Positions 1 through 16,165 of a stretch of DNA of 64,000 nt are shown piece by piece. Numbering within the stretch: position 1 is the stretch's first letter; each line of letters starts with the position of its first letter. Where the stretch lies: the IMG/VR virus record IMGVR_UViG_3300022774_000002; one strand, written 5' to 3'. The notes beneath the pieces were generated by a model. That model had not been told where the DNA came from and made no database searches. It saw nothing but the letters and a program-made list of their open reading frames with translations. The position numbers and the translations under genes are program-made. The DNA comes from a virus.

Positions 1-168
1 ATGAGTTCCAGGTAGAAGTGCTTGACGCTCTAAAAGATCCGTCCACAGTTGAAAAACAAGAACTACGTAACGAATACCTTGATCTAACAATATCTGATGA
101 GATTGAAGCTCTTGAAGCTATGGAAAATCTTGATGAGTTCCAAGTAGAAGTGCTTGACGCTCTAAAAG
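1..168 (+). repeat. 36-nt direct repeat (1-36 vs 133-168, 35/36 identical) encoding (D)EFQVEVLDALK twice, 132 nt (44 codons) apart
   Basis: atgagttccaGgtagaagtgcttgacgctctaaaag at 1-36 versus atgagttccaAgtagaagtgcttgacgctctaaaag at 133-168. Both copies are in the giant ORF frame. Confidence 0.9.
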
Positions 169-3100
169 CAGTTCAACAGGATGAACCTGATTCTTCAGCA
201 TTGCCAGCACCCGAAGATGATACCTTCACAACACAGTTGCAAAATGTGCTCAGTAATCAAGGCTTTCAAAACTCCCCACCTGAAAGGAAGTTACAGGAAG
301 CTATACGCCTACAACTTGAGAGTGGTGAAAGTCTATCAGCTCCACAACTTTTTTACGGAGCTTCCACATTCTTTGGTCAAGGTCAATACAACTCGCAACA
401 GGTCTATGATGTGTTAGAAGTTGCTGTTAACCAATACCTTGAAGCACAAGGTTTGATGAATGTGAATGTCGATAGTACGACCGCAGTTGATAACATAGAT
501 AAAATCCAAGCGATAGAAGCACGATTGCCTCGAATGTCAGATCGCACCGCAGCACGCGACGAAAATCAGCAGTATTCCACTCCTTTCCATTATTCATACT
601 TGGTCAACTGGGTAGCTAACTTACAACCCGATGATGTCGTTGTTGAACCTTCAGCCGGAACAGGTAATTTAGCTTGGGCTGCTAAGGTTATTGGTGCTGA
701 GGTGCATGTCAATGACATAGGACAATTTCGCCACCATCTCTTACAGCAAAACTTCCAAAATGTAACGAATGTCGATGCTTCTAACATTGCACAGCAGCTC
801 CCTAATGTTAATGCGACATTAGTTGTTATGAACCCACCTTTTAGTAGCACACGCGGACAACGCAAAAACCTTACGCTCGGTATGAACATGGTAGAGTCCG
901 CTCTCGAAACACTACAACCTGGTGGCAGACTTGTCGCTATTGTCAACGGGGGACGTGACCTTACACCTGAAATGCGAGCGGGTGAAGCTCCTGGTGGCGG
1001 TCCACATTTCAACGCTGATAACTACCGAAAGATCTGGAATAGAATAGCAAGCAAACATGCCGTGAGAGCAAACTTGCACGTCAGTGGTGAAGTATATAAA
1101 GAGTTCGGTACTACTTTCAATACTCGATTACTTGTTATTGATAAATATCCAGTTGTCATAAATGAACCGATACGGAATCAAACAGACGGATCACTGAAAT
1201 CTGAATATGACACGATGCATAAACAACGTGTCGACACTATCAAAGAAGCAGTAGAACTACTGGAAGGAGTTAGATATGAGCGTTCCGGAGAACAATCATC
1301 CAGTGAATCAACACGCCAAACAACTACTGAGACAACTCCCGGAGGACAATCCGTATTACCCACACAACCAGGACAATCCACAACTCCACAGTCTGATCCT
1401 TCTGGAGTGGTTCCTGGAGGAGATAGTGCCGTTCAACCCGGAGATGGAACAACGCCTCCCCAAACAAACGTGGACAGACCTGGAACAGAAGGCACGGGAA
1501 CTACGGGACATGGGGACAGAAGCCGCGTGGAAATGGATGATGATCAAACAGGAGACACGGAAAGAGATGGAACTGGAACCGGACTTCAACCCGATAGCCG
1601 AACTGACGGAAGCGAAGAGACTGATGCAGGGGGCGTGGATGATGGCGGACGCAGTGCAGACACTAATATACGAACAAGTACACAACGAGAAAATACAACC
1701 CAATTAGACGAATCCGAAAGCACTAAACAGGTAGATGCTGGTAAGTCTTGGATGCCTGCTGCGGACTCTCATGTCATTATGGGTAAAGAGGTTAGCCTCG
1801 TTGAAACTGTATCGCTTGGACTTATTGATAGTCCTGATGTGGCTAACGTTGATGTTAATATTGCTGAGCCTGCCAAATCCCGATATTCCAATGCACAGAT
1901 GAAAGCAATCAAGTTGAATATCCGTGCACACGATGCACATATTGAACCTGAAATCTTAGGAGACGCACCCACGCGTCGTGGCATGTATAACGGTGATGAT
2001 ACAGGTGTTGGGAAAACATGGATCGCAGCAGGAACTATCATTCACTACCAGAATCAAGGTATTACGAAGCATATCGTTGTGGGAGCTGACAAGAAATGGC
2101 TTAAAGATTTTAATGAAGTATTTACACTCGCAGGTGGTAACGCAGATACCCTATTTGAACTCGGCAGCCAAAAGAATTTACCAGCTTCTGGTGTTATGTT
2201 AACAACTTACGGCACACTTCGCGGTAAAGGTCAAGAAACAAAACGGTTGAGTCAAGTATTAGAATGGGCTACAGGACAAAAACCTCCGCAATCCTTACTC
2301 AGTCCGCAGACAGACTTTGAACTCGCACACTTTGGAGAACTGCCCCGAACTTTTGCTTTAGCTGTCACTGAATACAATGCTGGTAATCCGATGCCAACAC
2401 GCGTCACTGATCTGATAAACGAGTGGAACGGTCTGTCGCAAGGCACTGGACAATCTATTGATGAAATCCCGGATTCTTATATAAATAGCTACCAAGACAT
2501 ACTCAAAGAACAAGAAACACTCATGGCTCTCGAAGGAGAGGTTGGTCCAGCTGAATGGATGAAAAATGCTGCGGGATATGACGGCACAATCACCTTTGAT
2601 GAATCACATAACATGAAAAACTCTGAAGGTGAGAACGCTACAAACACAGGTATACGGGGTAGACAACTCCAGAGATTACTTCCAGACGGACGCGTAACCT
2701 ACTATTCTGCTACAGGCACAACCGTTATTGACAACATCGCCTATATGGAAAGATTAGGTATATGGGGTAGAGATAAACCGTTTGCCAATTCTGAAGACTT
2801 TATCACTGATATGAAAAACGGGGGCTTAAGTGCTCAAGAAGTCATGGTACGTGATCTGAAAGCACAAGGCTTATTTATTTCTCGTGGTCTTGATATGTCA
2901 GATGTTATGGTAGACGATCTTGTTCATGAGTTGACACCTGTTCAACGACAAACCTACAACGAACTTGCTCATGCATGGCAAGAGATCAGATTATATCTAC
3001 ACCAGTATCTTGGCAGTCTTGAAGTGCTTGCTGAAGAATCTGATGGCGGTAAAGGTGATGTCGGTAAAAAGAAAGGGGATATTTGGGGTGAATACTACTC

Positions 3101-6100
3101 TAAACAACTTGACTTCTTCCAAGCAGTGCTAAATGCTTTCAAAATGCAGACTGTTCTTGAGGACATGAAAAAACAACTTGATCAAGGAAAAAAGGTGTCC
3201 ATCCAGTTCACGAACACCTACGAAGAATCACAAAAACGACAAGTTGACCGCGCAGAACGCGAAGGTATTGACATTAGTGAAATTGAATTTGGAGCGCGTG
3301 AGTTTTTGGAAGATTATCTTGACCCCGAAACAGGTGTATTTCCTACCTATGATTATGAGGTTATCTATGATCCTGTATTAGATAAAGACACATTGCGTCC
3401 TGTGACAAATAGCACTAATCAAATTATAGAAATCAAATATACGGATGCGCGCGGTCAACAAAAGGTGGAACGTGTGCCACCCGGTAAGCCTATACCCAAT
3501 GTGAACAACATTCAGAACCGTGAACGTATACTTGGATTAGTCTATAACTCTCACATGCCTGAACCCCCGCTTGACCAATTTGTTCAGATGTTCAAGGATA
3601 GAGGACAGGAGATCGCTGAGATTACAGGTCGAGAGTCTCGATACTACCGTAATGAAGAAGGTGAACGACAAAAAGAAAAGTTAAGTGGTGGTGATGCTGC
3701 ACTGCGTAAACTTGTCGAAAATTTCAATGATAATGAGTTGTTCGGTCTCGCATTCTCTAAAAAGGGTGCTACCGGTGCGAATTATCCTGCTACTGATCCG
3801 AACCATACCATCGTCCAGTATATCATTCAAGCAGGTTGGGAAGCTGACACACTCAAACAAGGTATGGGACGACACAAACGTTCTAATGAGGTTGCTCCCC
3901 CTGAAATCAAAAACACCTATACCGATGTAATTGGAGAAAAACGATTTGCGTCTACTGCGGCAGCACGGATGGCAGAAATGGGAGCTACAACCCGGTCACT
4001 TGCTGCTGGGGGAACTGGTCTTGATATATTTGATTTTGATGTTAAGTATCTACAGACAGAATACGGAGCTAATGCATTATATGATTTCTTTTCTGAACTC
4101 AACGAGGGATATACCTTTACTGTGCCTGGAGAAACAAACCCTGACGGTACACCTATGGTAATAGGCATGTATAGCAGTGAGGAAGCAGGAATTACTGGTA
4201 TAGATGTTGTAACTGGATTGAGCATTGAACTTGAACAGAATATGGTAAAAAAAGATAAAATGCCACCTGTAAAGCGATTTCTCAATCGTGTGCTTGGATC
4301 ACCAAGTATAGAAATCCAAGACACTCTATATGCCGAATACTATCGCAGATTACAGACAAGATTATCTCAAGCTAAGGCGGAAAACACACTTGATGTAGGT
4401 GTCGGAACACTACCCATAAAAAATGCAGAGATTGTCAACAATACAGTCCTCGCTACTGACCAAGAGTCCGGTGCAAATACATACGGCACAATCGTTCAAG
4501 CTGATGAAGAAGTGCCAAAAATCAATTTCGACGAACTCAAAACGATGATGACAGCTGACTCCCATTCAAACTACTGGTTTGTTGAGGATACAGAAGGTAA
4601 TGTATACCTTGATAAAGAAGTTCCCGCTCGTGTTGATGCAAGCACAGGTGAATCAAAACCCTGGGTTAGACGAACACAACCTGATGGCACAAATAGATAT
4701 GGTGAAGCTGAAAACGCTTATGGTGAAGGTTGGACACTGCAAGAGATCCGTGTTAGTGTCCGTGAGGATGGTTCTGAATCATGGTCTTTAGGAAATACAG
4801 AAAATGGTAGAAATAACCAGTTAGGTAGCACCATATACGACGAAATGATTCATGCACGATCATCTGAAGAAGTTGATGCTGCATTCAAAGACAAATGGGA
4901 TGCCAAGTATGATGAAACTTCAGCAACTAAAACTATATATCTACGCATGGTGCAGGGATTGATGTTACCTGTATGGGATAAAATCAATCCACCTATTGAA
5001 TACCCTGAAGGCACAGAACAATATAATCGTGAACTACGTAAACGTAGGCTTGTTCGTATCAATCTCGAAGATGGAACGGACATCATCGGTAGACAATTCG
5101 CATCGGTTGGAGAATACAATCAGATATTTGAAAACTTCGGTGTAGCTGCCCCTGACCAAAGTGTTACTGTCGCTACAGTCCCAATGAACCAGACTGGCGT
5201 GATGAACATGATAAATCAAGATGGGTATACCGTTGAACTTACGGATGGGTTATCTATTCGGACACGTCAACGTGCAGGACAAACTTATCTCGTCGTTGAA
5301 GGTGACCGGTCGCGACTCGAAAGCTTAATGAACGACAATATACTGGATCGCTTCCGTCCAGGTGGTGGTGGTTGGGTGTATTCCGTGCCTAACGATAACA
5401 TCACTACCTTGTTCAGTCGACATAAGCCTGTGCGTGCTAACAAACGCGGGGATATACTCAATATAAATTATGAAACTCCGGGAGGGACACCTAATGTTCC
5501 GGACGAAAATCAGACGGGAAATGAACAAGAATCTATTCCTACAGATCCAGAAGAAGCAAACAAACAACAAAAAGATAAGGTACGCGAAAGATTAGACGCT
5601 GCCGAAGTAGCTATACGTAACAGCATCTCACAAGGATGGGACTGGATCAATACCGAACGTATGGAGAGGTTTTCTATTATAGATGAGAGGTTATCTACCT
5701 TATCGTCTGAATTGATTGATGAATGGATAGAGGCATCTGATGAACTTACAGGTGTTAAAGTTTCACGCGAACGCAGTGAACGTATCCTTGCTGATAATAT
5801 CGGTAGCTGGATGGCTGAAGAAAAAAGCAAGCAAGATAGAATTCTTGGTCAAGAACATGATCAACAACTCACGGAAAATGAACACCTACAGGCTCTCGGT
5901 ATTGATCCTAATAACTGGCAAATCTGGACTGCGGAAGAACGCGAAGCAGAAGTAAATCGTATTTATGAAGCACTCTTACAACGTGAAATCAACGAGGAAG
6001 ATTTCAACATATCTCAAGCACAAGTGCAAGCTGTCAATGCCCTAATATCTGGTGAACTCGGTGATGTTGTCAATATCGCTGACACTGCAGACACACAACC

Positions 6101-9100
6101 CACTGAAGAAGGATGGCGACATGCATTCCCAAAAGGAAAAGCTGAACGCAATAAAGTGCGAGCAGAATACACAGCACAGGTGCAACAGATTATTACAAAT
6201 GAAACCGACTCAAAGGTGAAAGTGCGTCTGCGAAATGTAAATAAACAGTTGCAGTCAGGAGATTATTTCGGATTGCATGGTAGAACGATTCAATCTGGTG
6301 CTGAAGCTGCTCTTATAGCACAATTTATACGGAATCCACTCATAGAAAGCACACTCATACTGCTCCGCAAAGATAATAAGATTGTCCGTGCTGAATGGCT
6401 TTCACTTGGACAAACAGAGAACACGTCACCAGGAGTGAAAGCCGAAGTTGAACGTATGCTTGCAGATGAGAACGCTGACGACTTTATCCGAGTTCATAAT
6501 CACCCAAGCAAAGTAGCCAAGTTTTCTAATAAGGATATGAATACTGCCAATAACTGGCGTAATCATTTCGGCACACGGCTTGCTGAAGAAATTGTTATCG
6601 ATGAAGGGACTTATGCCCGAAGCCATTTTGACCAAGAAGGTGAAGCGCGCTTTGAGAACGAACTTCAATTAGACCTTGAAAATGGAACTATCGTCCAGCC
6701 TGAGTTTTTCGGTGCGTTTATGAAAACACCAAAGGGATGGACTACCTTAATGATGTTAGATGATGCTGGAAAGGTTGTCTCAGCAATGGATATTCAAGGA
6801 CTATACGATAAAGGTGTTCTTCAAAACAAACTTGAAAAGATACTTGAAATGACACCGAGAGCTACTCGGATGCACGTCATAGCTGGCAAAGGAAATGATG
6901 GAGCAGAACGCATCCTACATAATAACCTCTCAAATAATCCTGTTGTTGAGTCTATGTGGGTAGAGGGTAGACCTGTTAGATTACAATCTCCTTCAAATAG
7001 ACATCGGGTAAGTCGGGAATCAAGGGTCGCTCCTACAGATGACACAATTGAACGGAATATCGGAGGCACAAATCAGCGATTTGTAAAGATTGATCCTAAC
7101 GATCTAAGAGATGTAAAAGAGAAACGCAAACCTGTCATCATAGCTGGCATAACTCACGATCTTGTGAGAGATACCAATCGAGAAGATGTATCCAAGCGTA
7201 CGCGTGGCGATGCTGAACACATGGTATCAGCTGTTAGACGGGCAAAAGTAGATTTACTTGATCAAGAGAAACTCCAAGCTGCCCGGAATACGGTTATACA
7301 GGTTGTTGGACAAGAAACAAAATTTAAAGACGTGTTTGAAAAAATGGTAGGATTCCAACAACAGTTGCAGGGACTGGAATCTTATTATAATGCACTTGAT
7401 CAACTTGGCTGGGACAAGATTAAAGCTGACACTGTAGGAGATCTTAAGGCAATTGTAGATGAAAGCCCGACACTTCAAACGCCAGAGGTGTTAGCACTTT
7501 TTGAAGGTCATGATCCACAATCTGATGCTTATAATATTAATTTATCTGATATTCACAAAATAAAAAACACAGTGTTTGAAAAGAAACGGGCGTTAAGAGA
7601 TCAAAATATCAATCTCAGGGATCAAATAAGACATGATCATCATTCTGTACAATTTGCTGAGAGAACTATGGTTGATTCTGTTCAAGAAATGCTTAGTGAT
7701 CATAAGATAAGTATCGAACGCGTTGAAGATTTGTATAAATACCTTGATGAAGCACCGGCAGCGAAGGTAAAAGCAGCGTTAGATGACCTTTGGGGACACA
7801 TTTCAACGGAGCAAGCTGTCTATAACCTTGTCTTACAGGATGGGCATTTAAAAGCTTTATCTCCCACAGGTGATAAAAACATCAACGAAGGTATGTTAGC
7901 ATACACTTCATACAGTGCCTACTATAGGCGAAATGAACACTTTTATAACTATGGATTCATTTTGGATATGGAGAAGATACTAAACGAAATACCCAACGTC
8001 ACGGGAACTGTCCATGTTCGCAATGTGTGGCGTGAGCGAGCAGACTTAAATAACCCTGATGAAATCCGTGAAGCAATGGAAGCTTGGCATGATCCGGGTG
8101 ATGAGGACATAGTTATTGAAGTCCGTATGCCCCAAAATGTGTCTATAAACGATTACCTTATCGGTGTCATTGAAGATGGTGAGGTATATGTAAAATCTGA
8201 ATACAACACAGACAACGAAGGAGAATTAAGCGACTATGCAGCAGAACGTGATGTTGATAGTGCTTCTGTTATTGTAAATCCACGCCAGGATACTGAAATG
8301 TCCTTTGAGGGACAAGACTCTCTGAAAAATAAAGGTGCTAAAGAGGCTGTCCAATTTTTCTCTCAGATCGACGAGGAACTCGGAAAACGTGTCGGTAACT
8401 GGATACCCGCAATGCGTAAAGGTTGGAATGACACAATGGCAGTCTTTGAATCTGGACGACGCGGATTAGAGAAACTACGTAGCAAACCTGGTGCAAAAGC
8501 CACTCCTTTTGAAGCTGCAAGTAATGACCTTGACTTAGCAATGATAGACGCTGTTACACGGATCTCCGGAATACGCAATATCACCAACCCTGTGCTAAAA
8601 GAACGAAAGGCACTTATTACTCAGTTATCTAAAGCAGAAGGGATCAGTCGATCGCAACTCACCAGTGATATAAACGAAGCTATCTCTGACTATCGAGAAC
8701 ACAATAAACCGATAGAAAACAACGCTAACCTACGTGCCTATGAAGATGATGATCTCATGGCACAGGTGAAAGAATACGCGGATAAGGAAAAGGAAGCTTG
8801 GAAACAGATCATCAGACAAAGCGATGAAGATATTATCACCCTTGTCAAGGCTGCAGATAAAAATAATGAAAAGCTTACATATCCAAATGGTGAGCCGATC
8901 ACACCTCTCCCAATTGATGGGTTTCATTATGATCTCGAACGTGACGGTTGGGTGCAGATGTCAAAATGGAATGCAAAGCAAGGACGTATGCGTCCAGCAA
9001 CTGAAACTGACATGCAACGGACTTGGACAACTGCGGAAGTGTTCGCACAGGCTGAGCGTTTCTATGTGCCACACCATTATACCAAAGAACATCTACTCAC

Positions 9101-11087
9101 CCGTAAAGATCGTGTCAATAAACTCCTGGAAGAACTAAACTATGCTGACGCAACAAATGATGTTTCGGACATCGATGACATGGTTGGGATACAACATGAA
9201 GGTGAAAAATACATCTTTAGACATACAGGTGAAGATTTTACCGCGGTAGAAGCTGTTATACAACGTGCCAAGGAGTACTGGAACAACGAGGACGCAAGTG
9301 TCCGTCAATATATCAATGCTCATGATGATGGCACACTCGCACGTTTTGGACACTTGGAACATCAACGCAAAACTGATGACCGACACTATGTGAAAGACAT
9401 CGAGGTTCATATCAAGATGATCGAACAAGCTACACGAAGAATGTCCTTGATCGCCTACTTTGGACAAGATCATGGTATAATAGGTAAGTCTCCTCGATTC
9501 AAAGCCCGTATGATGCAGATGTCAAGGTATTCGCATACTCCAGAAGAAGCAGCTTTACTCGCTATGTATACCGCGATGGGTGCTGACAAAATTGGAATGT
9601 TTGAACACCTGTATGACTTAGGTTCTGGCACACCTAAACAGGACTTCGACATTTTAGGCAGATGGAAAGACAAAGAAACAGGTGATCTCAAAGACCTGGA
9701 TATTGATCGATTAGAGTTATCCGACAACCAGTTGGAAACACTTCGTAAGATTGGACTCTTGGAAAAAGATGGAAATGAAAATTGGCGAGTTGTGGGTAGT
9801 AGCGTGAAAGCGCGCCACCAAACTATGCAACGACACTTCGCTGATTACTCATCTACGATCGCTGGTAGGCTGAAACACTTTATGAACACTCTGAATTCCA
9901 CTGCTGACGGACCGATACGTTCACTTACTGATAACAAAACTAACAAGCTTGTGTCAAAAGTGAACTCGGCAACGACTATGTTGACACTCGGACCGCGGAC
10001 AGCACTCCAAAACTTATCTGAACTGCCAAACATTATAGCTGCCGCAGGAATGAGTAACTTTATCAAGGGATTGAAGTTTATCAGTAATCCAGATAGCAGA
10101 CACCTTGTGAAAATGCTATCATCTGCTTTAGATCACGGGCATAGGTATATGGCAGAGACAAAAGGTGAACAATGGTATTTACAAAGTCCGCTGTCATTCT
10201 TTACGCAATCTGAGTTATTATCCCGTGAGTCTGGTGTTGCTATCGGATGGGTAAATGCGAAAGATAGGATACAAGCTTACCTTAATAATCCCTCACAAGC
10301 GAATCGACACGCCCTCGATGATGTGAAGATAAATAAGAATGTGATTGACGCATTCAAAACTGAAGCATCAGAAGCCGTTGACCTTGAAGATCTATTCACT
10401 GAAGCCGAACAACGTGTCCTTCATGGAAGTATGCCTGTCGGTGGGTTTCAGAAAGTTGGTGCATCATCTGCCTCAAACAAGTGGGTAGATATAATCGGGC
10501 AAGAACTACAACGTTCAGCTGTATATATGTCTCAGGATTTCCTCAAACGCTACGATGCTTTTTCAATGCCACCCTGGTTAGCAGAAAGACACCCGTTTGT
10601 AAATCTATTCTTCAAATACAGATCGTGGGGCTTTCAAAACCATGAGTTGCTCGCACGTAGGTGGAGACAAGCATGGCGACAAGGAAAAGAAGGTAACTGG
10701 ACTCCATTCCTAAATATGTCATTAGCAGCTGGCGTGCTAACACCGCTTGGAATTGGGGCATTAGGTTATGCTTTCACTGTATTTCAAGCTTTAGATGACG
10801 ATGATCCGTTTGCTCTTGAGATACTAAAAACCTTTACCGCAGCACAATCGTTTGGTATGGCTTCCATTCTTATTGAAGCTGTGGCACACGCAGGTGATAA
10901 TCCATTTCGATTGGAACACTCACTACGAGGACAATATAGCGGTCCCGCATTGAGTATTGCCACACGAATACTCGCACCTGTATTCACCGGTGATTTCAAA
11001 GAGGTCTTTGAACAACTCAGCCGAAGGTTGCCGATTTCACGAGAGGCACACTATCTGGGACTGAATAAGATTTTTGATGAGGAGTAA
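1..11087 (+). CDS. giant multidomain (polyvalent-type) protein, 5'-partial: N6-adenine DNA methyltransferase + Sbno/SNF2-like helicase + RadC/JAB-like domain + about 1480 aa unassigned C-terminal region
   Basis: Track ORF 18..11087 (3689 aa) begins at an in-frame GTG, but the same frame is open from nt 3 to the window edge, so the gene is truncated at its 5' end. Motifs read directly: EPSAGTG (645-665), NPPF (831-842), DDTGVGKT (1995-2018), DESH (2598-2609), QGMGRHKRSNE (3858-3890), HNHPS (6495-6509). Confidence 0.9.
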   Translation, partial: EFQVEVLDALKDPSTVEKQELRNEYLDLTISDEIEALEAMENLDEFQVEVLDALKAVQQDEPDSSALPAPEDDTFTTQLQNVLSNQGFQNSPPERKLQEAIRLQLESGESLSAPQLFYGASTFFGQGQYNSQQVYDVLEVAVNQYLEAQGLMNVNVDSTTAVDNIDKIQAIEARLPRMSDRTAARDENQQYSTPFHYSYLVNWVANLQPDDVVVEPSAGTGNLAWAAKVIGAEVHVNDIGQFRHHLLQQNFQNVTNVDASNIAQQLPNVNATLVVMNPPFSSTRGQRKNLTLGMNMVESALETLQPGGRLVAIVNGGRDLTPEMRAGEAPGGGPHFNADNYRKIWNRIASKHAVRANLHVSGEVYKEFGTTFNTRLLVIDKYPVVINEPIRNQTDGSLKSEYDTMHKQRVDTIKEAVELLEGVRYERSGEQSSSESTRQTTTETTPGGQSVLPTQPGQSTTPQSDPSGVVPGGDSAVQPGDGTTPPQTNVDRPGTEGTGTTGHGDRSRVEMDDDQTGDTERDGTGTGLQPDSRTDGSEETDAGGVDDGGRSADTNIRTSTQRENTTQLDESESTKQVDAGKSWMPAADSHVIMGKEVSLVETVSLGLIDSPDVANVDVNIAEPAKSRYSNAQMKAIKLNIRAHDAHIEPEILGDAPTRRGMYNGDDTGVGKTWIAAGTIIHYQNQGITKHIVVGADKKWLKDFNEVFTLAGGNADTLFELGSQKNLPASGVMLTTYGTLRGKGQETKRLSQVLEWATGQKPPQSLLSPQTDFELAHFGELPRTFALAVTEYNAGNPMPTRVTDLINEWNGLSQGTGQSIDEIPDSYINSYQDILKEQETLMALEGEVGPAEWMKNAAGYDGTITFDESHNMKNSEGENATNTGIRGRQLQRLLPDGRVTYYSATGTTVIDNIAYMERLGIWGRDKPFANSEDFITDMKNGGLSAQEVMVRDLKAQGLFISRGLDMSDVMVDDLVHELTPVQRQTYNELAHAWQEIRLYLHQYLGSLEVLAEESDGGKGDVGKKKGDIWGEYYSKQLDFFQAVLNAFKMQTVLEDMKKQLDQGKKVSIQFTNTYEESQKRQVDRAEREGIDISEIEFGAREFLEDYLDPETGVFPTYDYEVIYDPVLDKDTLRPVTNSTNQIIEIKYTDARGQQKVERVPPGKPIPNVNNIQNRERILGLVYNSHMPEPPLDQFVQMFKDRGQEIAEITGRESRYYRNEEGERQKEKLSGGDAALRKLVENFNDNELFGLAFSKKGATGANYPATDPNHTIVQYIIQAGWEADTLKQGMGRHKRSNEVAPPEIKNTYTDVIGEKRFASTAAARMAEMGATTRSLAAGGTGLDIFDFDVKYLQTEYGANALYDFFSELNEGYTFTVPGETNPDGTPMVIGMYSSEEAGITGIDVVTGLSIELEQNMVKKDKMPPVKRFLNRVLGSPSIEIQDTLYAEYYRRLQTRLSQAKAENTLDVGVGTLPIKNAEIVNNTVLATDQESGANTYGTIVQADEEVPKINFDELKTMMTADSHSNYWFVEDTEGNVYLDKEVPARVDASTGESKPWVRRTQPDGTNRYGEAENAYGEGWTLQEIRVSVREDGSESWSLGNTENGRNNQLGSTIYDEMIHARSSEEVDAAFKDKWDAKYDETSATKTIYLRMVQGLMLPVWDKINPPIEYPEGTEQYNRELRKRRLVRINLEDGTDIIGRQFASVGEYNQIFENFGVAAPDQSVTVATVPMNQTGVMNMINQDGYTVELTDGLSIRTRQRAGQTYLVVEGDRSRLESLMNDNILDRFRPGGGGWVYSVPNDNITTLFSRHKPVRANKRGDILNINYETPGGTPNVPDENQTGNEQESIPTDPEEANKQQKDKVRERLDAAEVAIRNSISQGWDWINTERMERFSIIDERLSTLSSELIDEWIEASDELTGVKVSRERSERILADNIGSWMAEEKSKQDRILGQEHDQQLTENEHLQALGIDPNNWQIWTAEEREAEVNRIYEALLQREINEEDFNISQAQVQAVNALISGELGDVVNIADTADTQPTEEGWRHAFPKGKAERNKVRAEYTAQVQQIITNETDSKVKVRLRNVNKQLQSGDYFGLHGRTIQSGAEAALIAQFIRNPLIESTLILLRKDNKIVRAEWLSLGQTENTSPGVKAEVERMLADENADDFIRVHNHPSKVAKFSNKDMNTANNWRNHFGTRLAEEIVIDEGTYARSHFDQEGEARFENELQLDLENGTIVQPEFFGAFMKTPKGWTTLMMLDDAGKVVSAMDIQGLYDKGVLQNKLEKILEMTPRATRMHVIAGKGNDGAERILHNNLSNNPVVESMWVEGRPVRLQSPSNRHRVSRESRVAPTDDTIERNIGGTNQRFVKIDPNDLRDVKEKRKPVIIAGITHDLVRDTNREDVSKRTRGDAEHMVSAVRRAKVDLLDQEKLQAARNTVIQVVGQETKFKDVFEKMVGFQQQLQGLESYYNALDQLGWDKIKADTVGDLKAIVDESPTLQTPEVLALFEGHDPQSDAYNINLSDIHKIKNTVFEKKRALRDQNINLRDQIRHDHHSVQFAERTMVDSVQEMLSDHKISIERVEDLYKYLDEAPAAKVKAALDDLWGHISTEQAVYNLVLQDGHLKALSPTGDKNINEGMLAYTSYSAYYRRNEHFYNYGFILDMEKILNEIPNVTGTVHVRNVWRERADLNNPDEIREAMEAWHDPGDEDIVIEVRMPQNVSINDYLIGVIEDGEVYVKSEYNTDNEGELSDYAAERDVDSASVIVNPRQDTEMSFEGQDSLKNKGAKEAVQFFSQIDEELGKRVGNWIPAMRKGWNDTMAVFESGRRGLEKLRSKPGAKATPFEAASNDLDLAMIDAVTRISGIRNITNPVLKERKALITQLSKAEGISRSQLTSDINEAISDYREHNKPIENNANLRAYEDDDLMAQVKEYADKEKEAWKQIIRQSDEDIITLVKAADKNNEKLTYPNGEPITPLPIDGFHYDLERDGWVQMSKWNAKQGRMRPATETDMQRTWTTAEVFAQAERFYVPHHYTKEHLLTRKDRVNKLLEELNYADATNDVSDIDDMVGIQHEGEKYIFRHTGEDFTAVEAVIQRAKEYWNNEDASVRQYINAHDDGTLARFGHLEHQRKTDDRHYVKDIEVHIKMIEQATRRMSLIAYFGQDHGIIGKSPRFKARMMQMSRYSHTPEEAALLAMYTAMGADKIGMFEHLYDLGSGTPKQDFDILGRWKDKETGDLKDLDIDRLELSDNQLETLRKIGLLEKDGNENWRVVGSSVKARHQTMQRHFADYSSTIAGRLKHFMNTLNSTADGPIRSLTDNKTNKLVSKVNSATTMLTLGPRTALQNLSELPNIIAAAGMSNFIKGLKFISNPDSRHLVKMLSSALDHGHRYMAETKGEQWYLQSPLSFFTQSELLSRESGVAIGWVNAKDRIQAYLNNPSQANRHALDDVKINKNVIDAFKTEASEAVDLEDLFTEAEQRVLHGSMPVGGFQKVGASSASNKWVDIIGQELQRSAVYMSQDFLKRYDAFSMPPWLAERHPFVNLFFKYRSWGFQNHELLARRWRQAWRQGKEGNWTPFLNMSLAAGVLTPLGIGALGYAFTVFQALDDDDPFALEILKTFTAAQSFGMASILIEAVAHAGDNPFRLEHSLRGQYSGPALSIATRILAPVFTGDFKEVFEQLSRRLPISREAHYLGLNKIFDEE
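540..1150 (+). other. domain: SAM-dependent N6-adenine DNA methyltransferase module of the giant protein
   Basis: Motif I-like VVEPSAGTGNL and motif IV VVMNPPFS in the order typical of gamma-class amino-methyltransferases. A QYSTP segment lies just upstream. Boundaries are approximate. Confidence 0.8.
1287..1730 (+). other. low-complexity T/G/D/S/P/E-rich linker (predicted disordered) between the methyltransferase and helicase modules
   Basis: The translation is dominated by runs such as SSSESTRQTTTETTPGGQS, GTEGTGTTGHGD and DGTGTGLQPDSRTDGSEETDAGGVDDGG, with no hydrophobic core pattern. Confidence 0.7.
1950..4010 (+). other. domain: Sbno (strawberry-notch)/SNF2-like DExH helicase module
   Basis: Walker A DDTGVGKTW and DESHNMKN. 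The C-terminal lobe has LAFSKKGATGANY and QAGWEADTLKQGMGRHKRSNEVAPPE, resembling the GRTHRSNQ signature of Helicase_C_4-type proteins, followed by KRFASTAAARMAEMGATTRS. Boundaries are approximate. Confidence 0.75.
6250..6640 (+). other. domain: RadC/JAB-like module
   Basis: RVHNHPSKVAKFSNKDMNTANNW matches the HNHPSG...S..D signature of RadC-type JAB domains. The preceding about 70 aa have the expected alpha/beta pattern. Confidence 0.65.
10698..10895 (+). other. C-terminal hydrophobic (TM-like) segments of the giant protein
   Basis: WTPFLNMSLAAGVLTPLGIGALGYAFTVFQAL and FTAAQSFGMASILIEAVAHAG are the only long uncharged hydrophobic stretches I saw in the 3689 aa. Confidence 0.5.
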
Positions 11088-11118: not shown

Positions 11119-11970
11119 ATGTTTATTGATAGATTTCTACGGTTTCTCGCAAACACACCTTCAATTGAATCATTGATTGCATTAGAACAGAATAATCCAG
11201 ATCGCTTTGAGAAAATCCGAAAAGCTCACAACGAGGTGCTACTCAAGTCAATCAATAAACAGTTGAAGAAGTCGCTGATCTTGTATTTTCACCCATACAC
11301 GACACAATGTATCGTTATGGTAGACTGGACAGGAGAACGTCCTTTACAGATAGGTCAACAAGAATTTACTATGTCCAGGATGCCGATTGATATAGAAACA
11401 GGTAGGATGTTAAAGGCAGGAAAAATTATATTTCATAGTCCTGTATTCCTACATAACTACTTTACAGAACTTTTCGCGCTGGTCAATAGGGAAGATGGTT
11501 ACGGAGTGCGTATTCACGGTAGACCATACCAACACCCAAGCGGACGGATTATTTCTGGACCTTCATCATTTGTTCAACTTCATCCTATGTTTTATTTCGA
11601 ACCACCCCGTATTGGAGAAGGTTTAGCAGCTATGCATCAATACGTAGAATTATCTATGCAAAACCTACTAATAGATACAGGAATGACGCAGGAATACAGT
11701 AATTTAGTTAGGAATCGTGTTGCATGTATGGAAGATATTATGCGGGGGATCGTAGAACGACAAGAACAGGTAGAAGGGAATGGTTATCCGTTGCCACCAG
11801 ACTATCGAGAATCTATTTCAGTGAGAGAAAGAATCCCGGAACAGATTAAGGAGGAAGAACCCCGTGAAGAAGTTGAAGATTTACTTGAAAAGATTGACAC
11901 ACTCCTTGAAGGTGAAGATCCTGAGAACGATGAGGAAAATTATATTCCACGAGTCGCCCAAAGTCTATAG
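11119..11970 (+). CDS. hypothetical protein with strongly acidic C-terminal tail
   Basis: 283-aa ORF starting 32 nt after the giant gene. C-terminus is EEEPREEVEDLLEKIDTLLEGEDPENDEE. A hairpin overlaps the stop codon. Confidence 0.6.
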   Translation: MFIDRFLRFLANTPSIESLIALEQNNPDRFEKIRKAHNEVLLKSINKQLKKSLILYFHPYTTQCIVMVDWTGERPLQIGQQEFTMSRMPIDIETGRMLKAGKIIFHSPVFLHNYFTELFALVNREDGYGVRIHGRPYQHPSGRIISGPSSFVQLHPMFYFEPPRIGEGLAAMHQYVELSMQNLLIDTGMTQEYSNLVRNRVACMEDIMRGIVERQEQVEGNGYPLPPDYRESISVRERIPEQIKEEEPREEVEDLLEKIDTLLEGEDPENDEENYIPRVAQSL

Positions 11971-11991
11971 TAGTGATTTTATTCACTACTA
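11968..11991 (+). terminator. hairpin at the 3' end of 11119..11970 (weak terminator candidate)
   Basis: TAGTAGTGA-ttttat-TCACTACTA forms a 9-bp perfect stem followed by TTAT only, so the U-tract is poor. Confidence 0.3.
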
Positions 11992-12222
11992 TTATGGCAT
12001 GAACGGAGAAATCTGCGATGCGAGAAAGGATAGCTTTGAATAAATAGGATTTCGTCGCTACAACAATGGAGAAACACATGTTACGAATTTACAATGGCAT
12101 GCATGCTACAACCAGACGCAAAAGCAAAGGACGCAAGAGAAAACACCGTAGGTTGTTTCGTGCAAAATACAAGGATGGATGGGAACGTAAAAAAGCTGGA
12201 GGATTAGCTCCATCAACTTTCT

Positions 12223-12603
12223 ATGAAAAAAAATATGGATACACCAGAATTTGTCAAAATACCATTTCCAGATAATGAATTAGAAGCTCTTGATGAAACA
12301 GGTGCAAAAGCACATATTCGTAAGATTGAAGCTGAGATGAAACTCTGTCAAAGCAATTACAATAAAGAGCTTACTAAAAACATTCAATACTCTAAACAAG
12401 TAAAAACACTGAATGATAACCTTGTCGTTGCTCAAACACAAGTGAAAGCCGTCAATCGACAACTAACAGAATTCAAGGAACTCGCGGAAGATAGACGTGC
12501 AGGTATACAATGGTATCAAAAGAGATATGGTAATCAGGGGCGGAATATAAAACCGAAAATGAATCTATTTCAGCGTCTGGTTGCGAAACTCATACGCATT
12601 TGA
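12223..12603 (+). CDS. hypothetical coiled-coil protein
   Basis: 126-aa ORF with a heptad-like charged/hydrophobic pattern (IRKIEAEMKLCQSNYNKELTKNIQ...). No family recognised. Confidence 0.5.
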   Translation: MKKNMDTPEFVKIPFPDNELEALDETGAKAHIRKIEAEMKLCQSNYNKELTKNIQYSKQVKTLNDNLVVAQTQVKAVNRQLTEFKELAEDRRAGIQWYQKRYGNQGRNIKPKMNLFQRLVAKLIRI

Positions 12604-12679
12604 TATAATAATCGAAGGCGAGCTTGCTTGTAGGGTGCGTGCTTGAAACTGCCCTATTGCGAGCACGCCCCCCAAGTTG

Positions 12680-12880
12680 ATGAACTTAGAAACCATGACT
12701 CTCATATCAAAAGCTGCACGGGCTTCTGAAAATATCTCGTGGGACTCATACTATCGGAAGTATGCTGAGAACTATAAATCTCCTTATACCGATGAGGAGA
12801 TTGAGGCAGCCAAAAAGCTTATCCAGCATGTGAATGAGAGATGTGGAACGGATTTTACTTGGGAAGATCCTTCCGACTGA
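12680..12880 (+). CDS. small hypothetical protein
   Basis: 66 aa from the ATG at 12680 (the track uses TTG at 12677). No clear SD. The 3' end overlaps the convergent gene 12855..13256 by 26 nt. Confidence 0.35.
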   Translation: MNLETMTLISKAARASENISWDSYYRKYAENYKSPYTDEEIEAAKKLIQHVNERCGTDFTWEDPSD

Positions 12881-13256
12881 TTTTTATACCCTTACAGTAT
12901 TTCCTTACAGTGCTATAAGAATAACTTGTATCCATTGTTATTTGGATGAGTGTATCTCCATTTCTACGCCTTTCACGGATGTCATCAATGTCATCCTTTG
13001 TCAATCCTGTTGTGCGCGCCCTTTTATTATGCCTACGCCATGCTTCACGAGCAAACAAAAACCTTTTATGGGTTTCTATTTCAGGATATTTTTCAATAAC
13101 CAGTATAGGTAATTTTATTGATACAGTATGCACTGAAACATCTGCATCCGCAGCAATATCGTGAAGACTCCATGTTTTCCACGCATCTTCGGGGGTTTCA
13201 GGATTATTGAACCACTCTGTGATCCGTTGTGTTGCCGTAAGCCTATCTTCATTCAT
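12855..13256 (-). CDS. putative DNA-binding protein with two helix-turn-helix-like segments
   Basis: Start moved to the ATG at 13256, preceded by GGAGGTGA and a 5-nt spacer. HTH-like stretches are SLHDIAADADVSVHTVSIKL and TLIQITMDTSYSYSTVRKYC. Confidence 0.6.
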   Translation of the reverse strand: MNEDRLTATQRITEWFNNPETPEDAWKTWSLHDIAADADVSVHTVSIKLPILVIEKYPEIETHKRFLFAREAWRRHNKRARTTGLTKDDIDDIRERRRNGDTLIQITMDTSYSYSTVRKYCKGIKISRKDLPK

Positions 13257-13785
13257 CCGTATCACCTCCGCGCATGCGTTTGTAGCATATTTCAAGGTTT
13301 TCTGAAATAGCATCAAAATTTTCTATACCGAATGTAGTAACTATTTCTTGATGGAACTTGTCGACTTCCTCGTCAGAGAGTTTTTCTAAAGCTCTGCTGT
13401 CGTCACTATGTATAAACATGATGATATTATCATTAAGCGTTTTGCTGAGTATTGTTCGGCTCACTTTTTCTGCCATCTCATCGCTTTCATAAGGATGTGG
13501 TTTGAAGATTACAATCAACATAATAGTGGGTGGTGTGTATGCATAGTCAATTGAGATCACATCAGATATAAGGCGTAAAGTATACTGAAAATCCGAATCA
13601 TTTTTTTCAGGTTCAATAAAAAATGATGGGAAACAGATTGATCCAGGGTCAATCTGTTTTTTATCTGGAACTTCACTTGACTTTAACCCAACCGTTCTAA
13701 TGGCTCTTTTCCCGGCTTTTTTAAATCGTTTCTCGTATTCCCTATCTATTTTACGTCTCTGTTGACGGGTCATTATCTGTTTCAT
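13249..13785 (-). CDS. hypothetical protein with basic N-terminus (K/R-leader series member)
   Basis: Start moved to the ATG at 13785 (SD AAGGTGA, 5-nt spacer). N-terminus is MKQIMTRQQRRKIDREYEKRFKKAGKRA. Confidence 0.6.
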   Translation of the reverse strand: MKQIMTRQQRRKIDREYEKRFKKAGKRAIRTVGLKSSEVPDKKQIDPGSICFPSFFIEPEKNDSDFQYTLRLISDVISIDYAYTPPTIMLIVIFKPHPYESDEMAEKVSRTILSKTLNDNIIMFIHSDDSRALEKLSDEEVDKFHQEIVTTFGIENFDAISENLEICYKRMRGGDTDE

Positions 13786-14293
13786 CTGTATCACCTTCAG
13801 CTTCGATGCCTGCCATCGTATCAATTGCCATGTGTCTAAAATGCAAGAAAAACCGCAGCGTGACATCTCGTAGTGTTTCGTTTACATCTTTAAGAATATC
13901 TTTCGTTACCGCTCTTATTTCATCATCGGTAGCATGATACAACCAGAAATCTGGTGTCTCACGGAATGTGTTGGGCTCAATCTGATGCCCTTCAGCTGTC
14001 AATCGACCATAGACAGTTGTATTCAGTGCTGTCCATAAGACACCAATATCTCTCTGCATATTCTCAAGATATTCAGGGATATTGTATTGCCTCTTTTTCA
14101 ATCTGCTGATTATTGCGTTGGGACCGGTTTCAACCAATTCAACTGGCACAGTTTTATCAATTGCGAATACGAGCTTATGTTCTGGAAATATCGCAGATAA
14201 GACATAAGAATGGGTAGCGATAAATCCTTCATCTAATATGATTATTTCTTCAACTGGCTTGATGAAGTTTCTCTTTTTTCGCTTATTTTTCAT
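13751..14293 (-). CDS. hypothetical protein with MKNKRKKR N-terminus
   Basis: 180-aa ORF. Its ATG overlaps the upstream stop (ATGA), indicating translational coupling. Acidic C-terminal tail. Confidence 0.65.
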   Translation of the reverse strand: MKNKRKKRNFIKPVEEIIILDEGFIATHSYVLSAIFPEHKLVFAIDKTVPVELVETGPNAIISRLKKRQYNIPEYLENMQRDIGVLWTALNTTVYGRLTAEGHQIEPNTFRETPDFWLYHATDDEIRAVTKDILKDVNETLRDVTLRFFLHFRHMAIDTMAGIEAEGDTDETDNDPSTET

Positions 14294-14661
14294 ACTGATG
14301 TTTTATCTCCCATATCTTTGAGTACATCTGAGATTGTCCGTTCTTTGAAATCTTCCATAGTAACGTCTGGGTTGACAGGATCAGCATCTTGCCATACAGA
14401 TTTACGATAGGCTATAAGTTCCTCAATAATAAAACCGAGTGTATCCGGTGATTTGAATCGGATACCCAGTTCAAGACCATCCTCAAGAGGCAGAATTACA
14501 TGCACTTCTTCAGCGGGTTGTTCCGCATTATGATCAGGATGCCATTCTCGGATAGAGAGATATTCCAATGGAATATCAAGTATATTGACACCGCTAATAT
14601 CAGAAAAACGATTCACCTCAGCTCGTGGTTTGATTCTTTTCTTTTTCCGTTTATTTCGCAT
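14290..14661 (-). CDS. hypothetical protein with MRNKRKKKR N-terminus; paralog of 14751..15083
   Basis: AAAGGA SD lies 8 nt upstream of the ATG. Shares FIIEELIAYRKSVW...DPVNP with FIEELIAYRNIVF...EPVDP of the neighbouring gene. Confidence 0.7.
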   Translation of the reverse strand: MRNKRKKKRIKPRAEVNRFSDISGVNILDIPLEYLSIREWHPDHNAEQPAEEVHVILPLEDGLELGIRFKSPDTLGFIIEELIAYRKSVWQDADPVNPDVTMEDFKERTISDVLKDMGDKTSV

Positions 14662-14750
14662 TTTTATATCCTTTCTAAATAAAAATAATGCTCACGTTGC
14701 CGTTCAACGCATTTTTTAGACACTGCCCTATATAATCCAAACAGGGATAT

Positions 14751-15083
14751 TCATCGCAACGGATCACTTTTTGAAGCAGTTGCTTTTGGGTCAACAGGTT
14801 CACTCTCTGGAAAAACTATATTACGATACGCTATTAATTCTTCAATAAAGCTTTTCAGTGATTCTGATGTATCAAATTGAGCAACCAATGGAAAAGGTAA
14901 CTCCACGTCATTGAGATGAGTAACCGTAATTTCAACTCTATCAGGTTTTGTTTTAGTCGCTGGACGTGTTGCTGCAACAAGTATCCGACTCATCATTAAA
15001 ACTTGTTCTGGTGATTTTTCTGGTACAAAAACCCGTTCGTTAAGTTTGTATTGATTCTTCATTTTTCTCCTCTTTCGCTTCAT
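14751..15083 (-). CDS. hypothetical protein with MKRKRRKMKN N-terminus; paralog of 14290..14661
   Basis: 110-aa ORF. An alternative start at 15062 (MKNQYKL) has a perfect internal AGAGGAG SD, so the K/R leader may or may not be translated here. Confidence 0.65.
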   Translation of the reverse strand: MKRKRRKMKNQYKLNERVFVPEKSPEQVLMMSRILVAATRPATKTKPDRVEITVTHLNDVELPFPLVAQFDTSESLKSFIEELIAYRNIVFPESEPVDPKATASKSDPLR

Positions 15084-15441
15084 TTTTCTCTCCTTCGTTT
15101 CGCCAAATCATTACTTGATCGGTTTGTTCATATTTTTGGACTATCTCACTGATTTCATCTCGGCTTGCTGTCCGGGCATGGATGTGGATGTCTCGCTTAC
15201 CTTTCGGACGCTTTTTGATTTTCTTCACGATGGACATTAGAATGTTTTCCCCCTGAGAACGAGGAATGGTATTTTCATAAACAAGAATAGCGCGTTGGTA
15301 TCCAAGATCCTCGTCGGTCATCTTATCAACGACTAAGTCTATGAACTTTAGAATGTTGTCAGACGCTGTTACACAAAACGCAATTGCCTTTGCGTCTTTT
15401 GGCACATGTGAAAAAATGGTTTCTGTATCATGTGATTGCAT
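15040..15441 (-). CDS. hypothetical protein
   Basis: Start moved to the ATG at 15441 (GGAGA SD, 5-nt spacer). 133 aa with an internal KKIKKRPKGKR patch. Confidence 0.6.
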   Translation of the reverse strand: MQSHDTETIFSHVPKDAKAIAFCVTASDNILKFIDLVVDKMTDEDLGYQRAILVYENTIPRSQGENILMSIVKKIKKRPKGKRDIHIHARTASRDEISEIVQKYEQTDQVMIWRNEGEKNEAKEEKNEESIQT

Positions 15442-15650
15442 GAATATCTCCAATACTCATCTATAGGTTTAGATGTTACATCGCTGTGAATCAGTAAAGG
15501 CATCAACAGATGACTGAATAACCTTCCGTAGCCATAATATATCGTCTTCAGAACGGATACGGAGATCAGCGTGTTTCAGAGTGTGTAGTCGCGGATGTAT
15601 AACTATAACTTGGAACAATTGATTGTTGGGTTTACGGATACGATTTAGTT

Positions 15651-15830
15651 CTACTGTTCCCTCTGCTCCATCAATATATTCATTGAGTCGGCTTGTTCAT
15701 CAGGGAATATCTCTTTGACGATTTCCCAACGCTCATCGTTTGTTCTTTCAACACTGAAATCGTCTTTATTTAGATTGACGACTGAGTAGCGGCGTGCTAA
15801 TTTCAGCACCCCCTCCTCTCTTTCATACAT
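15651..15830 (-). CDS. small hypothetical protein (59 aa), below the ORF-track cutoff
   Basis: Hand translation: AGGTGG SD, 4-nt spacer, ATG at 15830, then MYEREEGVLKLARRYSVVNLNKDDFSVERTNDERWEIVKEIFPDEQADSMNILMEQREQ and a stop at 15651-15653. Confidence 0.5.
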   Translation of the reverse strand: MYEREEGVLKLARRYSVVNLNKDDFSVERTNDERWEIVKEIFPDEQADSMNILMEQREQ

Positions 15831-15840
15831 ATTACCACCT

Positions 15841-16155
15841 CTACATTAAATAACGCATGTCGTAACTTTCAATGATATACTTATCACGAATTGGAAAGTG
15901 ACCTTTATCTGAGATCTCCATTCTAATTTGGTCAGGAATTCCTTCATCAAATTTATCCATCATATAGTGAATTACTGCGTCTTGCTGTTCTTCTGTTAAT
16001 GCATTCCAGTCAACAAGGAACACACTTTTAAGTGAACCGCGTAAGTTCGCATTAACCGGGGTTTGTTGTATCAAAGGAACATACCCATCAGTGAATATGT
16101 ATCCCAGTTTATTTTTACCATCATAAGTTAGTAAACGTTGACATTCTGCAGGCAT
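15841..16155 (-). CDS. hypothetical protein
   Basis: 104-aa ORF in the minus-strand operon. Its start follows the conserved GNRA hairpin at 16166-16188. Confidence 0.6.
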   Translation of the reverse strand: MPAECQRLLTYDGKNKLGYIFTDGYVPLIQQTPVNANLRGSLKSVFLVDWNALTEEQQDAVIHYMMDKFDEGIPDQIRMEISDKGHFPIRDKYIIESYDMRYLM

Positions 16156-16165
16156 AAAGATATAT

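Follow-up and report, generated by a model that had tools for sequence, protein, structure and literature searches.

The first gene in the 64,000-nucleotide stretch of the virus record IMGVR_UViG_3300022774_000002 (IMG/VR), which is referred to here at its full length as the window, encodes a giant protein that joins an adenine-type DNA methyltransferase (MTase), a strawberry-notch (Sbno) type helicase, a RadC/JAB unit and a long C-terminal module in a single chain. The explanation that we favor, with a probability of about two in three, is that this protein is packaged in the virion and ejected ahead of the DNA or together with it, and that it combines an ejectosome module with an enzyme cargo. 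Packaging, ejection, membrane insertion and all the enzymatic roles are proposed here on the basis of the architecture of the protein, its composition, the synteny of its gene and its predicted fold. As judged from the alignments with its relatives, the layout would be that of a conserved N-terminal domain, located beyond the window, followed by loosely linked enzyme modules and by a conserved helical C-terminal module of ~950 residues.

The gene lies in frame 3 of the + strand, at 3-11087, and its translation gave 3,694 sense codons with a sole stop, the terminal one (11085-11087). At the left edge of the window the frame is still open. The open reading frame (ORF) lister had called it at 18..11087 (3,689 amino acids, aa) because this program requires a start codon and the GTG at that position is the first candidate within the window. 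The original prediction for this DNA, a reading of the letters without database searches, had described a single frame open at the window edge and longer than 3,689 aa. The open frame was borne out by the 3,694 codons without internal stop, and the long frame is real, but the full chain would be longer still. The comparison was made with P0122, a protein of 4,129 aa encoded by the Tara metagenome scaffold L004, in which BLASTP showed 931 residues preceding the position that matches residue 1 of the window protein (residues are numbered throughout from the first codon in the window). Therefore, the full protein probably has about 4,600 aa, of which the window would hold the C-terminal ~80%, and ~930 N-terminal residues would lie beyond it. 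The same BLASTP comparison aligned residues 1-1848 with residues 932-2783 of P0122 (82% identity), residues 1961-2347 with 2787-3175 (63% identity) and residues 2738-3694 with 3174-4129 (88.5% identity). The true 5' end of the gene had no match in exact-match scans of IMG/VR and JGI metagenomes; scans for related loci returned nothing close to it, the sequence is absent from INPHARED and no self-match was present in the protein database. Thus P0122 and L004 (82-88% identical) were taken as the proxy for the missing 5' part. With regard to this end of the protein, it was observed that the peptide EFQVEVLDALK occurs twice at the start of the window part, 44 residues apart (nt 3-35 and 135-167), and that Q/E-rich repeats (…RQQFWQDNL…) are present in P0122 directly upstream of the region matching the window start. 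The N-terminal third of the giant protein therefore appears to contain repetitive spacers.

The C-terminal module, cysteine content and gene order

The module that defines the family covers residues 2740-3694 (8220..11084, + strand) and is mostly helical, as analyzed with AlphaFold2 (AF2), Foldseek and 50 relatives. Pfam, PHROGs, NCBIfam, PADLOC and sequence searches of the PDB assigned nothing to residues 2210-3694, which agrees with the original prediction, where no motif could be read in the C-terminal region. The AF2 model of residues 2740-3694, built from an alignment of 45 sequences, reached a mean predicted local distance difference test score (pLDDT) of 75.3, with 650 of the 955 residues at 70 or above, and it is nearly all helical with small beta subdomains. 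When this model was compared with the PDB by Foldseek, no match was obtained at E <= 1e-3; the six best matches are weak, and among them are the pre-infection ejectosome of PhiM1 (E 0.15) and core proteins of E1004 (E 0.5-1.1). The search against the predicted viral structures of BFVD gave eight matches at E <= 1e-3 (from 8e-6), with a probability of 0.98-1.0 in seven of them and 0.97 in the remaining one, and with TM-scores of 0.18-0.25. This list consists mainly of proteins named Internal protein D or internal virion protein D (Bordetella BB8, LKA1, Erwinia, Providencia, phiKT and Acibel007), accompanied by the structural protein of KPP25, by SLT-domain proteins and by C-terminal pieces of proteins from uncultured phages annotated as 'large polyvalent protein associated domain'. 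A likeness to ejection proteins of the gp16 class is the best-supported structural reading of the model; since sequence methods do not confirm the Foldseek link, 'gp16-class-like' is not taken as established homology.

These results modify what had been supposed for the unassigned region. The original prediction had suggested that nt 6640-10690 may hold further effector domains, and had proposed AlphaFold and Foldseek as a check. The idea is kept for the cassette of residues 2348-2737, described below, which seems to be exchangeable, and it is replaced for ~950 residues by a conserved helical module that resembles gp16-class proteins. Likewise, the check gave matches to internal virion protein D predictions for the model of residues 2740-3694, and no neighbor for that of residues 2315-2765.

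On the Kyte-Doolittle (KD) scale, the most hydrophobic segment of the whole chain of 3,694 residues falls within this module (residues 3569-3597; 10707..10793, + strand) and is a candidate membrane-inserting helix. Among the 22 other members in the alignment, 9 have a counterpart of this segment. The charge of the C-terminal tail was also considered as a possible family rule and was rejected, since the closest relatives have an acidic tail and the distant ones a basic tail.

To find relatives, an exhaustive HMMER search was needed, since word-index protein searches with the C-terminus returned only 1-3 matches, even when it was used as a profile. With residues 2495-3694 as the query, 50 relatives were recovered among 1.84 billion representative proteins, and no relative was found by megablast of the giant gene against 50,697 deposited phage genomes; the lineage is thus rare and unstudied. 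Intact ORFs of 4,129-4,946 aa are present in at least 11 independent assemblies. The C-terminal module was found in 20 of the 22 relatives that were mapped against the window protein, and in 17 it ends at most 50 residues from the C-terminus. At the other end, an N-terminal (L/F)TPxE motif is common to most family members.

Another aspect to mention is the cysteine content. The giant protein has no Cys in its 3,694 residues, for which ~48 would be expected from the average of 1.3% in the other ORFs of the window, and the recognizable structural proteins of the window carry 1-7 Cys each. When 23 family proteins were taken together, only 5 Cys were counted in 82,411 residues. Proteins of model phages were counted for comparison. 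N4 gp50 (3,500 aa), T7 gp15 (747 aa), T7 gp16 (1,318 aa) and P22 gp7, gp20 and gp16 have no Cys, and T7 gp14 has one in 196 aa; P22 terminase, portal, gp10 and tailspike have 4-8 each, N4 primase has 8, and the capsid-packaged P1 DarB has 9 in 2,255 aa. From these counts, the family shares its compositional hallmark with the proteins that pass, threaded, through a short tail and across the periplasm, and not with DarB. In the literature searched, no statement of a rule of Cys avoidance in ejected proteins was found. Near-absolute avoidance of this residue may be a general signature of ejected proteins and, considering the three phages checked, its absence could serve as a marker of such proteins in uncultured phages, readable from sequence only. 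As a separate observation, the window encodes another Cys-free protein (57384-58217, + strand; 277 aa), with a Phage_lysozyme domain at residues 99-245 and an N-terminal extension of ~98 residues, which could act as an endolysin or be one more ejected protein that degrades the wall.

The position of the giant gene was established by comparison with L004, which has 81-83% nucleotide identity to the window over most of this gene. Positions 384-6499 of L004 align with window 59661-63994, and positions 12792-22390 with window 1-11087. From these alignments, about 6.3 kb separate the two ends of the window on a map of ~70.3 kb that is circular or permuted, in agreement with related contigs of 69,462, 71,062 and 70,164 bp. 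Since the window closes into such a circle, no other large gene follows the giant gene in the late operon. As judged from L004, the missing ~6.3 kb contains the final part of a 702-aa gene, two small genes for Cys-free glycine-zipper proteins, and the initial ~930 codons of the giant gene. In this scaffold the two small genes (281 aa and 424 aa) are on the + strand directly upstream of the giant gene, each encoding a glycine-zipper hydrophobic segment; a 106-aa gene of the opposite strand is located between them, and the five genes that precede the pair carry 2-10 Cys. Homologues of both genes occupy the same place in the relatives L002 and L003. It should be noted that ejection genes are conventionally identified by their size and synteny, and not by sequence (PMC8954989, PMC13434306).

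Enzyme modules and exchangeable parts

The first enzyme module of the window (residues 54-400; 162..1202, + strand) comprises a helical region followed by a gamma-class N6-adenine-type methyltransferase, and was delimited with Pfam, PHROGs, PADLOC and the collinearity with P0067, a stand-alone bacterial protein of 1,461 aa. The helical region ahead of the methylase (residues 54-190) is conserved and aligns with bacterial homologues. The methylase itself was matched by the Pfam MTS methyltransferase family (residues 217-318, E 3.7e-8), by the DNA methyltransferase phrog_6263 of PHROGs (E 9e-11) and by the methylase mad2 of PADLOC (E 5e-13), and it carries motif I EPSAGTG at nt 645-665 and motif IV NPPF at nt 831-842. 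A reading of the protein as a defence system was discarded, as PADLOC matches the methylase alone. Downstream there is a low-complexity linker, probably disordered (residues 401-598; 1203..1796, + strand), with no family match in Pfam and a content of S/T/P/G/Q/N that amounts to 60% in residues 401-500 and 45% in residues 501-600.

The second module (residues 599-1848; 1797..5546, + strand) corresponds to a strawberry-notch-type superfamily 2 (SF2) ATPase/helicase with its C-terminal extension, as placed by Pfam, P0067 and the relatives. Pfam AAA_34 extends up to residue 987 (E 5.7e-58, 196.7 bits, cutoff 27), with ResIII at residues 666-743, and Helicase_C_4 covers residues 1190-1468 (E 3e-36, 126 bits, cutoff 30.5). 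The Walker A motif DDTGVGKT (nt 1995-2018), the DESH motif (nt 2598-2609) and motif VI GRHKRSNE (nt 3867-3890) were located, so that in the chain the NPPF motif of the adenine methylase stands upstream of the motifs of the SF2 ATPase. Residues 4-1350 of P0067 are collinear with window residues 54-1698 at 28-31% identity, the methylase part corresponding to residues 4-323 of that protein. Because the alignment with P0067 runs to window residue 1698, the segment from residue 1469 to ~1850 is the normal C-terminal part of the helicase unit, which in the relatives is kept, by BLASTP, as far as residues 1714-1848; the unit therefore reaches ~1700-1850 and does not end at 1468. By this collinearity, residues 54-1698 amount to a full version of the MTase-Sbno protein (~1,450 aa) that conjugative elements encode. 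The architecture annotated as 'bifunctional class I SAM-dependent methyltransferase/DEAD-DEAH box helicase' gave 301 matches, some of which are fused to ArdC and MPTase-PolyVal; these fusions are conjugative-element polyvalent proteins.

After the helicase unit, an acidic linker (residues 1849-1957; 5547..5873, + strand) diverges even from the closest relative. The D/E content is 26% in residues 1901-2000, no BLAST alignment with P0122 was obtained over residues 1849-1960, and blastn left a gap at window 5495-5879. The linker is followed by the RadC/JAB module (residues 1958-2325; 5874..6977, + strand), whose limits were taken from the relatives and whose Pfam core is at nt 6351-6614. The Pfam RadC match covers residues 2117-2204 (E 2.5e-7, 31.1 bits, cutoff 22.1), and the match in PHROGs is a RadC-like protein. 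The sequence HNHPSKVAKFSNKD (nt 6495-6536, residues 2165-2178) corresponds to the full JAMM motif H-x-H-x7-S-x2-D, in which the catalytic H, H, S and D are retained in 17-19 of ~22 aligned family members, and the metal site of the unit is intact; this unit may act on nucleic acid or may cleave the protein chain. The equivalog and subfamily models of RadC in NCBIfam scored far under their cutoffs; therefore, this is a RadC domain only and not bacterial RadC proper. In general, the catalytic motifs of the methylase, the ATPase and the JAMM unit are intact in the window protein and largely kept across the family.

Most of what the original prediction had read in the enzyme part was thereby supported. 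It had named an N6-adenine methyltransferase (EPSAGTG, NPPF), on which Pfam MTS, PHROGs and PADLOC agree, a disordered linker, which is indeed of low complexity, a Sbno-like helicase, for which AAA_34 and Helicase_C_4 are above the Pfam thresholds, and a RadC-type JAB domain (HNHPS), which is above the Pfam cutoff and has the complete JAMM motif. The profile searches that it had set as a check accepted the methyltransferase and the helicase. The description as a polyvalent-type protein also holds, with MTS, AAA_34/Helicase_C_4 and RadC in one chain, and the protein is encoded by a phage, with the large terminase (TerL), the portal, the major capsid protein (MCP) and an adaptor in the window. 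Injection together with the DNA, which the original prediction had also raised, is still the favored reading.

Between the RadC unit and the C-terminal module, a variable cassette was recognized in the BLASTP map (residues 2348-2737; 7044..8213, + strand). P0122 (82-88% identical) lacks it, and it was found by BLASTP in L001, P0123, P0127 and P0142; at the nucleotide level, L004 has no blastn counterpart to window 6800-8217. The cassette holds a mobile alpha/beta domain (residues 2576-2764; 7728..8294, + strand) with the motifs LAYTSYSAYYRR, YGFILDMEK, GTVH and VIEVRxPQ. The position of this domain varies, since P0155 has it at the N-terminus (residues 169-356) and P0140 and P0143 have it within the chain, and P0122 does not carry it. 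The AF2 model of residues 2315-2765 had a pLDDT of 64 overall and of ~70-84 across the mobile domain, and Foldseek found no significant match for it in the PDB. An ADP-ribosyltransferase had been guessed for residues 2576-2764 from an H / Y-T-S / E pattern, and this candidate was rejected in view of the lack of a PDB neighbor of the AF2 model and of any family match. As judged from the alignments, within the formerly unassigned region only the cassette of residues 2348-2737 behaves like an exchangeable domain.

The enzyme modules are also unevenly distributed in the family. By BLAST, the Sbno helicase is present in 13 of 22 members, the methylase in 7-8 and RadC in 14, one member having two RadC modules. 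By Pfam, the 11 members analyzed showed Sbno (8/11), MTS (4/11), ddrB-ParB (3/11), DprA_WH (2) and RRM (1).

Neighboring genes and related contigs

The other genes of the window were identified with PHROGs and Pfam. The large terminase TerL (31340-33097), the portal (34799-36922), the major head protein (37917-38885), a SU10-type head-to-tail adaptor (39720-40973; PF24175, E 2e-12) and a 1,053-aa protein with three Big_12 immunoglobulin-like domains and one fn3 (43963-47124), probably a fibre or decoration protein, are all encoded on the + strand, which is also the strand of the giant gene. The SU10-type adaptor points to a short-tailed virion. In the 50,697 phage genomes, tblastn of the portal gave no match, the matches of the terminase did not exceed 24.5% identity, and by such comparisons the lineage is far from anything cultured.

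After the giant gene, the region 11119-27120 contains two small genes of the + strand, of 283 aa and 126 aa, and then a block of genes on the minus strand for which hardly any family matches were obtained. One of these minus-strand genes encodes a 207-aa tyrosine recombinase (16578-17201; Pfam Phage_integrase, E 6e-25), which is also present in the related contig L005; from the presence of this enzyme, a temperate phage is possible, as is a use of the recombinase in genome resolution. In the block that corresponds to 11119-27120, faint or weak matches to sigma-70 regions were observed in the relatives L001, L002 and L005. A 261-aa ORF (53945-54730, + strand) matches the phage endonuclease family phrog_452 with its C-terminal 100 residues (E 6e-12). 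This ORF and the ORF 52930-54042 overlap at the end of the latter, and the gene boundaries are uncertain there. No tRNA genes were found anywhere in the window.

A degenerate-pattern scan of GTDB genomes returned 33 loci, 32 of them unrelated, and the sole relative was L027 (WTGF01000045.1). This contig and L005 (JAGFCB010000167.1) belong to the lineage and are binned in metagenome-assembled genomes (MAGs) of 'Chloroflexi' and 'Candidatus Poribacteria', respectively. L027 has 70,164 bp at 420x coverage. These contigs are probably free or episomal phage genomes that were mis-binned, and the bins may give a hint at the hosts.

Proposed mechanism, alternatives and known systems

If the giant protein is ejected, it would be made late and packed in a few copies in the capsid. 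At infection, it would be threaded unfolded through the portal-tail channel, along with the two small glycine-zipper proteins encoded upstream. The C-terminal module and its hydrophobic helix would then build or anchor the inner-membrane end of a DNA conduit, as is the case of T7 gp16 and as has been proposed for the N-terminal domain of the N4 virion RNA polymerase (vRNAP), and the enzyme modules would refold in the cytoplasm where the DNA enters. Sbno ATPases are members of the SWI2/SNF2 double-stranded DNA translocases. In the giant protein, such a translocase could track the incoming DNA so that the fused adenine methylase modifies it in cis, ahead of the host restriction enzymes, and it would possibly also help to pull the DNA inward. 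In T7 and N4, the internalisation of the genome is carried out by RNA polymerases. A bolder proposal, which we consider doubtful, is that an ejected and membrane-tethered SNF2-type translocase of double-stranded DNA replaces this transcription-driven internalisation: the motor would reel the genome in and methylate it en route (import-coupled self-protection), and the swappable domains would be an arsenal tuned to the host defences.

Several points weigh against the interpretation as an ejected protein. With respect to the fold, the link to the gp16 class comes only from Foldseek comparisons between predicted structures, in which the TM-scores are low and the root-mean-square deviations large, and 3Di scores may be inflated for long helical proteins. 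Searches of the C-terminal module by sequence did not extend this link: hmmsearch against the PDB found nothing, hhalign against T7 gp16 gave E 0.12 and 0.38, PHROGs and Pfam gave no match, and no sequence-level link to T7 gp15 or N4 gp50 was obtained either. The candidate membrane helix is a single segment of moderate hydrophobicity (KD 1.58). The Cys controls come from three model phages, which is a small sample, and some non-ejected proteins (scaffold, needle) are also Cys-free. Furthermore, the Cys-free genes upstream are known from the relatives only, in a stretch that lies beyond the window, and the phage is uncultured, its packaging of the protein being inferred from Cys depletion, synteny and fold.

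An alternative, in line with the original prediction, is a protein that would travel in the phage head and whose sole purpose on injection would be that of an anti-restriction methylase/helicase, in the manner of P1 DarB. In that case it would have no conduit role, and the C-terminal module would be a capsid-targeting or packaging domain. The order of methylase and helicase is that of DarB (PMC5512222), a conserved terminal module beside variable cargo would fit a packaging signal equally well, and no homology to gp16 is found by sequence methods. We nevertheless consider this explanation unlikely, because the homology to DarB stops at a weak methylase match and because the conduit-forming ejection proteins are Cys-free, whereas DarB is not. 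Moreover, the structural matches of the C-terminal module are internal virion protein D and not head-decoration or targeting domains, the two small Cys-free glycine-zipper genes upstream mirror ejectosome operons, and 950 residues would be large for a mere targeting signal.

It is even less probable that the protein is never injected and acts in the producing cell, as a late enzyme for the modification or remodelling of replicating or packaged phage DNA. Bacterial chromosomes and mobile elements commonly encode MTase-Sbno proteins of ~1,450 aa that stand alone, the PADLOC match is to the defence-system methylase mad2, and the packaging of the giant protein in the virion is a deduction of ours, all of which would suit an intracellular enzyme. 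However, such a role would leave unexplained the near-absolute Cys avoidance over 82,411 residues, the conservation of the N- and C-terminal modules around swappable domains, and the ejection-protein-like fold together with the synteny with Cys-free glycine-zipper genes. Finally, an artefact of assembly or annotation, in which adjacent genes were falsely joined in one frame, can practically be dismissed: the gene is indeed broken into 3-4 ORFs in the low-coverage long-read relatives L001 (6x) and L003 (7x), but in L001 the homology is maintained from one frame to the next, so that the splits are indel errors in the assembly and not gene boundaries, there are at least 11 intact independent ORFs, and no stop occurs in 11,082 nt of the window frame.

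Returning to the protein as an ejected one, if this reading is true it would represent a new class of giant ejected enzyme, with a DNA methylase-translocase payload. To our knowledge, the well-studied giant ejected enzymes of short-tailed phages have so far been RNA polymerases (N4, crAss-like). It would also link two literatures, the comparative genomics of polyvalent proteins and the structural biology of ejectosomes, in that the delivery module itself resembles an ejection protein. In addition, it would offer as handles the conserved N- and C-terminal parts that frame the exchangeable domains, a candidate DNA-entry motor and a no-cysteine rule for flagging injected proteins.

The comparison with known systems begins with P1 DarB and the phage-type polyvalent proteins, with which the giant protein shares a size of more than 2,000 aa, several conflict-type domains in one chain, an NPPF adenine methylase followed by an SF2 ATPase, a phage late-gene context and a predicted delivery alongside the DNA; the ddrB-ParB hallmark of the phage-type polyvalent proteins is also present in its relatives. 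The analogy with DarB drawn in the original prediction does not stand as homology. BLASTP matched the methylase only (residues 135-400 with DarB 43-293, 23% identity, E 8e-4) and gave no match between the helicase and DarB, P1 was not recovered by tblastn of residues 1-2209 against the 50,697 phage genomes, and DarB has 9 Cys in contrast to essentially none in the giant-protein family. Polyvalent proteins with the MTase-helicase dyad have been proposed to act on entering DNA, and Iyer et al. 2017 proposed that such ATPases drive the fused adenine methylase along it (PMC5512222). With respect to that survey, the giant protein differs in its strawberry-notch helicase, noted there only 'in a few instances', and in its RadC domain, reported there only in conjugative-element polyvalent proteins and found here in a phage protein and in 14/22 relatives (BLAST); no MuF domain was found in the giant protein. 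The conjugative-element MTase/helicase of ~1,450 aa is collinear with the enzyme unit, but it is stand-alone or associated with ArdC, whereas in the giant protein the unit is an internal module of a phage chain of ~4,600 residues that has lost all cysteines.

The closest structural neighbors of the C-terminal model, at low TM-scores, are predicted structures annotated as internal virion protein D or internal virion protein, the class of T7 gp16, which is likewise Cys-free. The T7 gp16 gene is the last and largest of a run of ejection genes (gp14-15-16), an order that for the giant gene is known from the relatives. On the other hand, there is no detectable sequence homology to T7 gp16, no lytic transglycosylase domain is present in the visible part, and the module is the C-terminal quarter of a chain 3-4 times longer that carries DNA-acting enzymes. 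The vRNAP of N4 (gp50) is also a Cys-free giant single chain (3,500 aa) of a ~70-kb short-tailed phage, with loosely linked domains and conserved terminal domains flanking an enzymatic core, and its gene comes after two smaller ejection-protein genes (gp52-51-50). In the literature it is a giant ejection protein whose domains are loosely connected and which stands in for the third ejection protein, of gp16 type (PMC13434306). Both proteins differ in their payload, since the giant protein carries MTase, Sbno ATPase and RadC, and no RNA polymerase family was found in it with Pfam, PHROGs and NCBIfam. The membrane-associated part is N-terminal in N4, whereas the hydrophobic helix is C-terminal in the giant protein; the best BLASTP match between both had E 0.083, and the portal and MCP are also unrelated to those of N4 at the BLAST level. 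By sequence a member of neither group, the giant protein would work like the N4 vRNAP and like the DarB-type polyvalent proteins.

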